Assembly: GCF_056712565.1 (NCBI RefSeq) | Contig: NZ_CM160072.1 | Length of the DNA: 64,000 nt | Reading direction: 5' to 3' (one strand) | Part shown: positions 5,470 to 46,251 of the stretch, in pieces | Layout of the letters: each line of letters starts with the position of its first letter | Position numbering within the stretch: the first letter of the stretch is position 1 | Translations under genes and position numbers: made by a program | The notes under the pieces: generated by a model | What the model saw: only the letters and a program-made list of their open reading frames with translations | Told to the model about the DNA's origin: nothing | Database searches by the model: none

Positions 5470-5503
5470 AAAAAAAGGCCCCTGTTGAAATTGCAGGGGC
5501 CTG
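5470..5503 (-). terminator. Rho-independent terminator downstream of cutC
   Basis: aggcccctg...caggggcct hairpin with an A-run on the plus strand (U-run on the minus-strand transcript). Confidence 0.6.
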
Positions 5504-5548
5504 GTACGAGCAAGCATCATATTGGGCGACATGATGCAACGGTAAAAA

Positions 5549-6304
<756 letters not shown>

Positions 6305-17651: not shown

Positions 17652-17678
17652 TTATCGGCAAGGAGGGGGGAAACTTTA
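17652..17678 (-). promoter_or_regulatory. Sigma-28 (FliA) class III promoter for the tar operon
   Basis: Minus strand reads TAAAGTTT-N11-GCCGATAA, an exact match to the sigma-28 consensus, about 30 nt upstream of the tar start. Confidence 0.8.
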
Positions 17679-17708
17679 TTGCTGATGCCACCCGCCGCGA
17701 AATTGAAA

Positions 17709-17737
17709 TAAAAAACCCGATGCGCAGATCATCGGGT
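17709..17737 (-). terminator. Rho-independent terminator after cheW (end of motAB-cheAW operon)
   Basis: cccgatg...catcggg hairpin with an A-run on the plus strand (U-run on the minus-strand transcript). Confidence 0.65.
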
Positions 17738-17764
17738 TCATTTCAATTGAGGAAATCGGGAGAA

Positions 17765-35957: not shown

Positions 35958-36044
35958 TGGTACCCGGAGCGGGACTTGAACCCGCACAGCGCGAACGCCG
36001 AGGGATTTTAAATCCCTTGTGTCTACCGATTCCACCATCCGGGC
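35958..36044 (-). tRNA. leuZ: tRNA-Leu (anticodon UAA)
   Basis: Reverse complement reads GCCCGGATGGTGGAATCGGTAGACACAAGGGATTTAAAATCCCTCGGCGTTCGCGCTGTGCGGGTTCAAGTCCCGCTCCGGGTACCA. Confidence 0.9.
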
Positions 36045-36056
36045 TCGGGAAGAAAG

Positions 36057-36130
36057 TGGAGGCGCGTTCCGGAGTCGAACCGGACTAGACGGATTTGCAA
36101 TCCGCTACATAACCGCTTTGTTAACGCGCC
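36057..36130 (-). tRNA. cysT: tRNA-Cys (anticodon GCA)
   Basis: Reverse complement reads GGCGCGTTAACAAAGCGGTTATGTAGCGGATTGCAAATCCGTCTAGTCCGGTTCGACTCCGGAACGCGCCTCCA. Confidence 0.9.
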
Positions 36131-36184
36131 AAATTCTTCAGGCCTTTCAGCCATACATCCGCTTGACGCCGATGTCTTTTAAAC

Positions 36185-36260
<76 letters not shown>

Positions 36261-45212: not shown

Positions 45213-45932
45213 TTATAACTTACCCAGTTTAGTGCGTAACCGTTTAATAGCCTGGCTGTGTAACTGACTGACCCGCGATTCCCCGACCTCCAGCACCGCG
45301 CCAATCTCTTTGAGATTCAGCTCTTCCTGATAATAGAGGGTTAATACCAGTTTTTCGCGCTCCGGCAACGTTTCGATGGTTTCCATCACCCGCTGGCGCA
45401 GATTACTGTCCAGCAGTTGTTGTAGCGGGTTTTCTCGCTGATGATCATCAGTAACCAGTTCGATGCTATCGCCGTGCTCTTCGCGCCACTCATCGTAGGA
45501 GAAGAGCTGGCTGTTATTGGTGTCGAGCAACATTTGGCGATAATCGGCAATATCGATCCCTAAACGTTCCGCTACCTCAGTTTCCGTGGCGTTGCGGCCA
45601 AGTTCCTGCTCCAGTTGCCCTATTGCCTGTGCCACTTCACGCGCGTTGCGTCGCACGCTGCGCGGCACCCAGTCACGGCTGCGAAGTTCATCCAGCATAG
45701 CGCCACGTATACGCTGCACTGCGTAAGTTGTAAATGCCGTTCCTTGTAGGGCGTCATAGCGTTCGACGGCATTAAGTAACCCAATGCCGCCCGCCTGTAG
45801 CAGATCGTCAAGTTCCACGCTCGCGGGCAGTCGAACCTGCAGGCGCAATGCTTCGTGACGCACCAGCGGGACATAACGCTGCCACAGCGAGTGTTTATCC
45901 ATTACACCTTCAGCGGTATAGAGTGAATTCAC
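45213..45932 (-). CDS. fliA: Flagellar sigma factor FliA (sigma-28)
   Basis: 239-aa sigma-70-family protein with regions 2 and 4; a GCCGATAA -10-like element on the minus strand lies about 30 nt upstream (plus-strand ttatcggc at ~45958-45965). Confidence 0.95.
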   Translation of the reverse strand: MNSLYTAEGVMDKHSLWQRYVPLVRHEALRLQVRLPASVELDDLLQAGGIGLLNAVERYDALQGTAFTTYAVQRIRGAMLDELRSRDWVPRSVRRNAREVAQAIGQLEQELGRNATETEVAERLGIDIADYRQMLLDTNNSQLFSYDEWREEHGDSIELVTDDHQRENPLQQLLDSNLRQRVMETIETLPEREKLVLTLYYQEELNLKEIGAVLEVGESRVSQLHSQAIKRLRTKLGKL

Positions 45933-46053
45933 GATAAACAGCCCTGCGTTATATGAGTTATCGGCATGATTATCCGTTTCTGCAGGGTTTTTAATCGGGC
46001 GATTAGTGGGTGAAATGAGGGGTTATTTGGGGGTTACCGGTAAATTGCGGGCA

Positions 46054-46078
46054 GAAAAAAACCCCGCCGTTGGCGGGG
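46054..46078 (-). terminator. Rho-independent terminator at the end of the fliC 3' UTR
   Basis: ccccgcc-gttg-ggcgggg hairpin with a plus-strand A8 run (U-run on the minus-strand transcript). Confidence 0.7.
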
Positions 46079-46107
46079 AAGCACATTGCTGACAAATTAC
46101 GCTTCAT

Positions 46108-46210
46108 GTTGCCGGATGCGGCGTAACGCCTTATCCGGCCTACAAAAATCTGCAAATTAAATAAATTGCAATTCACCTTGTAGGCCTGATAAGCACAGCG
46201 CACCAGGCAA
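46108..46210. repeat. REP/BIME palindromes within the fliC 3' UTR
   Basis: gccggatgcggcgtaacgccttatccggcctaca and gtaggcctgataagcacagcgcaccaggca. Confidence 0.7.
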
Positions 46211-46251
46211 TTTGGCGTTGCCGTCAGTCTCAGTTAATCAGGTTACGGCGA

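Follow-up and report, generated by a model that had tools for sequence, protein, structure and literature searches.

The 3' untranslated region (UTR) of fliC in Escherichia coli ATCC 11775 most probably encodes an orthologue of FliX, a small RNA (sRNA) that is already known, having been described in E. coli K-12. The probability that we attach to this reading, which is drawn from the sequence of the interval 46055-46248 on the minus strand, is roughly 90%. The 64,000-nucleotide stretch of DNA analysed here (the window) matches E. coli DSM 30083, which is ATCC 11775, with 100% identity over the query, and the RefSeq record of this identical genome has no annotated feature between fliC and its downstream neighbour fliA.

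The minus-strand gene order in this part of the window is fliC (46252-48009), an intergenic region of 319 nt (45933-46251), fliA (45213-45932; ORF list and RefSeq annotation), fliZ and tcyJ. The parental gene of FliX encodes an H7-type flagellin of 585 amino acids, listed in RefSeq as a FliC/FljB family flagellin, and ends with a TAA stop codon at 46254-46252. Upstream of fliC, a sigma-28 (class 3) promoter, TAAAGGTT-N11-GACGATAA, can be read from the sequence at 48112-48086, and appears to be intact when measured against the sigma-28 consensus TAAAGTTT-N11-GCCGATAA. Transcription would start at about position 48079, judging from the fliC -70 in-vitro template of Melamed et al. (eLife 2023, PMC10578931), which is named 'flic (-70)-220' and begins at tGACGGCGATTGAG.

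In the direction of fliC transcription, the TAA codon is followed by about 40 nt of unique sequence, a first REP unit (REP-A), a linker of 36 nt, a second REP unit (REP-B), about 32 nt of unique sequence, and an intrinsic terminator. A terminator scan of the minus strand resolves the last of these as CCCCGCCAACGGCGGGG followed by TTTTTTT, with a stem at 46078-46062 that holds seven G-C pairs and a 3-nt loop, and a U7 tract at 46061-46055. This element would form the 3' end of both the fliC mRNA and FliX, and is the presumed Hfq-binding module of the latter. An earlier, sequence-only reading of the window had placed the terminator at 46054-46078, within 1 nt of the scan, and its estimates of about 175 nt between the fliC stop and the terminator and of about 200 nt for the whole 3' UTR are close to the measured distances (173 nt to the terminator stem, and 197 nt from the fliC stop to the end of the U-tract). 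The same reading had located the fliA promoter region just beyond; an exact sigma-28 -10 box, GCCGATAA, is indeed present at 45965-45958, within a promoter region (45933-46054) that lies outside FliX and leads to the GTG codon of fliA, the sigma-28 gene, at 45932, 122 nt past the terminator. The homology arm of the fliA-deletion primer SM035 (Melamed et al. 2023) also matches this region. The terminator is kept in all E. coli alleles compared, FliX-less ones included, and the fliA promoter region is nearly invariant among them. A 66-amino acid ORF on the minus strand (46003-46203) traverses the terminator and both REPs, and was dismissed as mechanical. At a distance from this locus, a perfect match to the sigma-28 consensus, TAAAGTTT-N11-GCCGATAA, is found on the minus strand at 17652-17678, where it overlaps the start of a match to the Rfam C0465 RNA (17668-17745, plus strand, 111.6 bits); from the K-12 map, we take this to be probably the tar promoter region.

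The identification of FliX depends on the published sequences, which are available as an oligonucleotide table (supplementary file 3 of PMC10578931) that comprises primers, a probe, and the templates for FliX-S, FliX-S-M1, rpsS and rpsS-M1. The forward cloning primer for FliX +1 (SM044) maps to 46248-46225, the forward primer for the 5' end of FliX-S (SM673) to 46159-46135, and the northern probe (SM043) to 46099-46072, each with two mismatches, while the common reverse primer downstream of the terminator (SM045) maps without mismatch to 46030-46009. By the SM044 mapping and the identity with K-12, the full-length orthologue is an RNA of 194 nt (46055-46248), which extends from the position at which K-12 FliX has its processed 5' end through the terminator U-tract. 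The orthologue of FliX-S, defined by the SM673 mapping and the FliX-S gBlock, is about 105 nt long (46055-46159), and the published FliX-S in-vitro template (PMC10578931) begins 3 nt further upstream, at 46162. Alignment with the K-12 sequence, taken from the MG1655 record, runs end to end, with 183 of 195 columns identical (93.8%). Such an alignment was the check that the sequence-only reading had suggested for its claim that the fliC 3' UTR yields the reported sRNA; the claim is borne out by the 0-2 mismatches of the published primers, probe and templates and by the overall identity, and the primer positions exclude that FliX maps elsewhere.

The window copy also occupies the same position as its K-12 counterpart, between the fliC stop and the fliA promoter, and presents the same order of 5' unique arm, REP, linker, REP, seed and terminator. 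It differs from K-12 FliX by eleven substitutions and one 1-nt deletion. For instance, the mapped 5' end has CC where K-12 has UU, and the 5' nucleotide of FliX-S is U rather than G. Within the REPs, an A-to-G and a C-to-U change in REP-A keep wobble pairs, and the deletion falls in the loop of REP-B. The parental fliC genes differ as well, with an H7 allele in the window and an H48 allele in K-12. No FliX family is present in Rfam 15, and only sub-threshold matches to REP and linker sequence were obtained within the interval. Among the RNA genes found elsewhere in the window are a full-length match to the MicL sRNA (Rfam RF02654, 368 bits) at 5470-5777 on the minus strand, and three clustered tRNA genes (Rfam tRNA matches of 54-69 bits) at 35961-36260 on the same strand.

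In K-12, FliX is a sigma-28-dependent, Hfq-binding sRNA that is processed from the fliC 3' UTR, and it is seen both as a band of about 200 nt and as a form of about 100 nt, FliX-S, that contains one REP from downstream of fliC (Melamed et al., eLife 2023, PMC10578931). The FliX species are 5'-monophosphorylated and co-immunoprecipitate with Hfq, and FliX has also been seen by RIL-seq in EPEC and Salmonella (PMC10578931). FliX pairs inside the coding sequences of fliC and of the S10-operon genes rplC, rpsS and rpsQ and represses these genes; fusions to rplC, rpsS-rplV and rpsQ were repressed, fliC mRNA was reduced, and the number of flagella is lowered (PMC10578931). For the window, a promoter scan of both strands returned no sigma-70-like promoter inside the fliC 3' UTR, which fits production of FliX by processing rather than from an internal promoter.

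By analogy, we infer that the expression, processing and Hfq binding of FliX in ATCC 11775 are the same as in K-12, in which case a mechanism of the following kind can be proposed. RNA polymerase with sigma-28 would transcribe fliC from the class 3 promoter and stop at the terminator (46078-46055), and an endonuclease, presumably RNase E, would then cut the tail of the fliC mRNA. Cleavage would yield FliX of about 194 nt, with a 5' end near 46248, a few nucleotides past the fliC stop, and FliX-S of about 105 nt, with a 5' end near 46159, within the linker between the REPs. Both RNAs would keep the Hfq-bound terminator hairpin and U-tract and the 16-nt seed that lies between REP-B and the terminator. 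REP-B, as the 5' hairpin, would delimit FliX-S and protect it, and REP-A would stay as a 3' hairpin on the upstream fragment of the fliC mRNA. Together with Hfq, the seed would pair inside the coding sequences of fliC, rplC, rpsS and rpsQ and lower their expression, with the outcome that FliX would act as a late 'decelerator' of flagellar synthesis.

Processing of sRNAs from mRNA 3' ends is not unique to FliX, with CpxQ and SdhX being other examples that likewise use the parental terminator as Hfq module. The sRNA FlgO, from flgL (PMC10578931), resembles FliX in that it is an mRNA 3'-end sRNA, is processed, has no promoter of its own, and has the parental terminator as its Hfq module. A commonality of FliX with FlgO, CpxQ and SdhX is the fact that expression is tied to the parental gene. 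However, FliX differs from all three in being unusually long, with repeated REP DNA as its body, and in having targets that lie inside coding sequences, its own parental mRNA included (PMC10578931).

The seed region of the window copy, UUUGUCAGCAAUGUGC, lies at 46081-46096 on the minus strand, as delimited by the M1 and rpsS-M1 sequences, the alignment of 11 alleles and the energies of the rpsS duplexes. In K-12, the seed was defined by the M1 mutation (GCA to CGU), which abolishes binding to rpsS, and by the compensatory rpsS-M1 mutation (UGC to ACG), evidence of direct pairing between FliX-S and rpsS (PMC10578931). The window seed is identical to the K-12 seed, UUUGUCAGCAACGUGC, at 15 of 16 positions, with the M1 triplet GCA intact at 46089-46087. 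The sole change is C-to-U at 46085, which converts a G-C pair with rpsS to a G-U pair and weakens the predicted duplex with the published rpsS fragment by about 3 kcal/mol (-20.2 kcal/mol for the window, as compared to -23.3 for K-12 and -17.1 for M1). An identity of at least 99% in the rpsS target fragment is seen in 5236 of 5426 complete genomes of E. coli. In the case of fliC, duplex prediction with the K-12 and window alleles found no convincing pairing site for FliX in the 5' region, the solutions being loop-rich and insensitive to M1, and did not recover the published FliX-fliC site.

A second property of the RNA that bears on the seed is its fold. The 194-nt FliX has a minimum free energy (MFE) of -71.6 kcal/mol, as compared to -54.7 +/- 4.2 kcal/mol for shuffled sequences (z = -4.07), and none of 200 shuffles folded as well, a result that agrees with the description of this 3' UTR as structured in the sequence-only reading. 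In the predicted full-length fold, for the window allele and the K-12 allele alike, one long hairpin arises from pairing of the two REPs. By MFE and partition function, again in both alleles, the closing helix of this hairpin consists of 7 bp between the 5' arm CUGACGG (nt 22-28, 46221-46227) and UUGUCAG (nt 154-160, 46089-46095), the latter being the 5' half of the seed. The partition function gives this half of the seed an unpaired probability of about 0.01-0.07 in full-length FliX, and of 0.3-0.95 in FliX-S. Thus, half of the seed is predicted to be sequestered in FliX and open in FliX-S, and its release by cleavage would fit the published observation that overexpressed FliX-S is more active than FliX (PMC10578931). 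A conformation of full-length FliX with local hairpins costs 4-10 kcal/mol more than the long hairpin, and could form co-transcriptionally. Among the 11 E. coli alleles, no pair of the predicted helices was changed on both sides, a comparison that has no power either way with respect to covariation.

Where FliX is present, its sequence varies little, with the REPs, the seed and the terminator being nearly invariant among the 11 aligned E. coli alleles. The most variable spot in these alleles consists of the 2-3 nt at the K-12 5' end (UUG, CCG, UCG or UCC); with CC for UU at this same, most variable position, the processing site may differ in the window strain. The C-to-U change in the seed and a G-to-U change in the linker of the window copy are each unique among the 11 alleles. 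Beyond E. coli, a search of contigs from one genome per species with a 20-nt seed pattern found no other Escherichia or enterobacterial representative with an exact match, and three matches in unrelated bacteria were set aside as chance. The same search matched a 3920-bp contig labelled MAG: Collinsella sp. (JAIJJM010000281.1), on which the 3' end of an E. coli-type fliC is accompanied by a complete FliX and by the fliA promoter; this contig almost certainly comes from Escherichia and was mis-binned into an actinobacterial MAG. The annotation of E. coli strain 162.2 (NZ_CP059929.1) gives fliA as a pseudogene with a frameshift, next to an intact FliX region; such a strain, without sigma-28, would presumably not make FliX.

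The body of FliX is composed in large part of repeated DNA. The fliC-proximal unit, REP-A (46180-46208, minus strand), fits the pattern of Z-type REPs with one mismatch, and shuffled sequences gave no chance matches. REP-B (46111-46143, minus strand), which supplies FliX-S with its 5' hairpin, is a Y-type REP with a near-perfect palindrome, recovered as an inverted repeat (I3) and as a partial match to naRNA4; it was missed by the ungapped consensus search only because of the 1-nt deletion in its loop. The observation of the sequence-only reading that the fliC 3' UTR contains two REP units is thus upheld, against a chance expectation of zero for REP matches. The two units are mutually inverted, with arms that are 94% complementary (inverted repeat I1), and are separated by an A/T-rich linker of 36 nt (46144-46179, minus strand) that corresponds to the 'L' motif of BIME-1 elements. 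A BIME-1 element, or RIP (RIB), consists of a Y REP, an L linker with an IHF site, and a Z1 REP. A second element of the BIME-1 type exists in the window at 1458-1555 on the plus strand (Y REP at 1458-1491, a linker, and Z REP at 1527-1555), and the REP-linker-REP of FliX aligns with it column for column. The linker of this second copy (1492-1534), homologous to that of FliX, passes the gathering score of Rfam ES036, and on the strength of this alignment the REP-linker-REP of FliX can be assigned as a BIME-1/RIP-type element, having the inverted Y and Z REPs and the A/T-rich linker of about 36 nt that are typical of such elements. It differs from them in the IHF-like core of its linker, which in a consensus scan reads ATTAAATAAATTG in the window, with two mismatches to WATCAANNNNTTR, and ATTCAATAAATTG in K-12, with one mismatch, and also in being transcribed within a defined Hfq-binding sRNA, which is not known for most BIMEs.

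Two Rfam families that share these sequences were considered and rejected as designations for the locus. The match to ES036 (CssrF) at 46146-46187 scores 29.7 bits, below the gathering score of 37.6 bits, and the partial match of REP-B to naRNA4 scores 35.8 bits (E=0.00068), below the gathering score of 59.5 bits. Both matches reflect shared REP and linker sequence only, and the ES036 'sRNA family' itself appears to model the BIME-1 linker. As for naRNA4, a REP325-derived nucleoid-associated RNA (Rfam RF02564; PMC4550694), it is alike to FliX in that both are REP-derived transcribed hairpins and half of the naRNA4 model matches REP-B; however, only one of the two hairpins of the model is matched, naRNA4 comes from another locus, and FliX is not a member of this family.

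The distribution of FliX within E. coli was assessed in 5,426 complete genomes, with presence called at a coverage of at least 80% of the query. A query that extended from the 3' end of fliC to fliA matched 5379 of the 5426 genomes, but reached a coverage of at least 80% in only 3502, with many of the matches beginning exactly at the terminator. The 170-nt body of FliX (window 46079-46248), which includes both REPs and the seed, was present at this threshold in 3438 of 5426 genomes, or about 63%, and is absent from about 35%. In all seven FliX-less genomes that were sampled, the fliC-fliA spacer is 154-164 nt long, and the stop codon is set apart from the same terminator by about 20 nt of unrelated sequence that contains neither REPs nor the seed. 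The short fliC 3' UTR sequences are of at least three different kinds. A short form accompanies an H4 cassette (349-amino acid flagellin WP_000079759.1), shared by the blood isolate B36 and strain 55989, and also an H11-type cassette (flagellin WP_000079823.1), shared by two strains. In the short 3' UTR of E. coli 2013C_3653 (2462-2615 of the extracted locus), an 11-nt deletion cuts the U-tract to three T (GGCGGGGTTTCAATTT), so that termination before the fliA promoter may be weaker.

This distribution, together with the REP content, brings up an alternative explanation whereby the block is a generic BIME-1/REP insertion without a trans-acting sRNA function in the window strain. REPs in 3' UTRs stabilise upstream mRNA, and REP hairpins protect against 3' exonucleases; as RNA, the element would thus block 3' exonucleases and stabilise the fliC mRNA, and as DNA it would provide sites for IHF or gyrase between fliC, which is heavily transcribed, and the promoter of fliA. 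Of the 194 nt, about 100 do make up the REP-linker-REP, which belongs to a repeated family and has its second copy elsewhere in the window, the absence of the whole block from about 35% of genomes shows that it is dispensable, and the window allele has a private seed substitution and altered nucleotides at its 5' end. In K-12, moreover, the phenotypes of the chromosomal fliX-M1 seed mutant are mild, with motility unchanged (PMC10578931). However, the seed is unique, non-REP sequence, the FliX body having a median of one place per genome, and it is nearly invariant across the alleles that carry it; the compensation of FliX-S-M1 by rpsS-M1 in K-12 shows direct pairing (PMC10578931), and the IHF-like core is more degraded in the window allele than in K-12. 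We therefore consider a generic BIME without sRNA function to be improbable, bearing in mind that a BIME role and an sRNA role are not mutually exclusive. More improbable still is that the region is a long terminator or insulator spacer against fliC read-through into fliA-fliZ-tcyJ, with its structured part incidental: the terminator immediately precedes the fliA promoter and is kept in every long or short allele, but the short alleles end at the same hairpin only about 20 nt past the stop, so that neither termination nor insulation requires the extra 155 nt.

The short and long alleles suggest that what lies downstream of fliC is swapped along with the flagellin cassette, and that the breakpoints fall in the conserved terminator and fliA promoter. 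FliX would then be an accessory sRNA that goes with the fliC cassette, and not one of the core sRNAs of E. coli. In addition, its full-length form may be a partly auto-inhibited precursor, with the seed released by cleavage to FliX-S. We advance this as a tentative proposal, and rate the chance that it is both real and unreported at slightly short of even. No statement on polymorphism of the FliX body was found in the searchable literature, an absence that constitutes weak evidence.

For the window, the result is mainly a point of annotation, in that an interval without annotation encodes a regulator, already characterised, through which flagellin synthesis is tied to the expression of ribosomal proteins. 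The proposal of an accessory FliX reaches further. If it is true, the 'decelerator' arm of flagellar control would be variable among strains, being swapped with the flagellin antigen while the rpsS target is universal, and, if it is confirmed, conclusions drawn in K-12 on the post-transcriptional control of flagella may not transfer to lineages with a short fliC 3' UTR.
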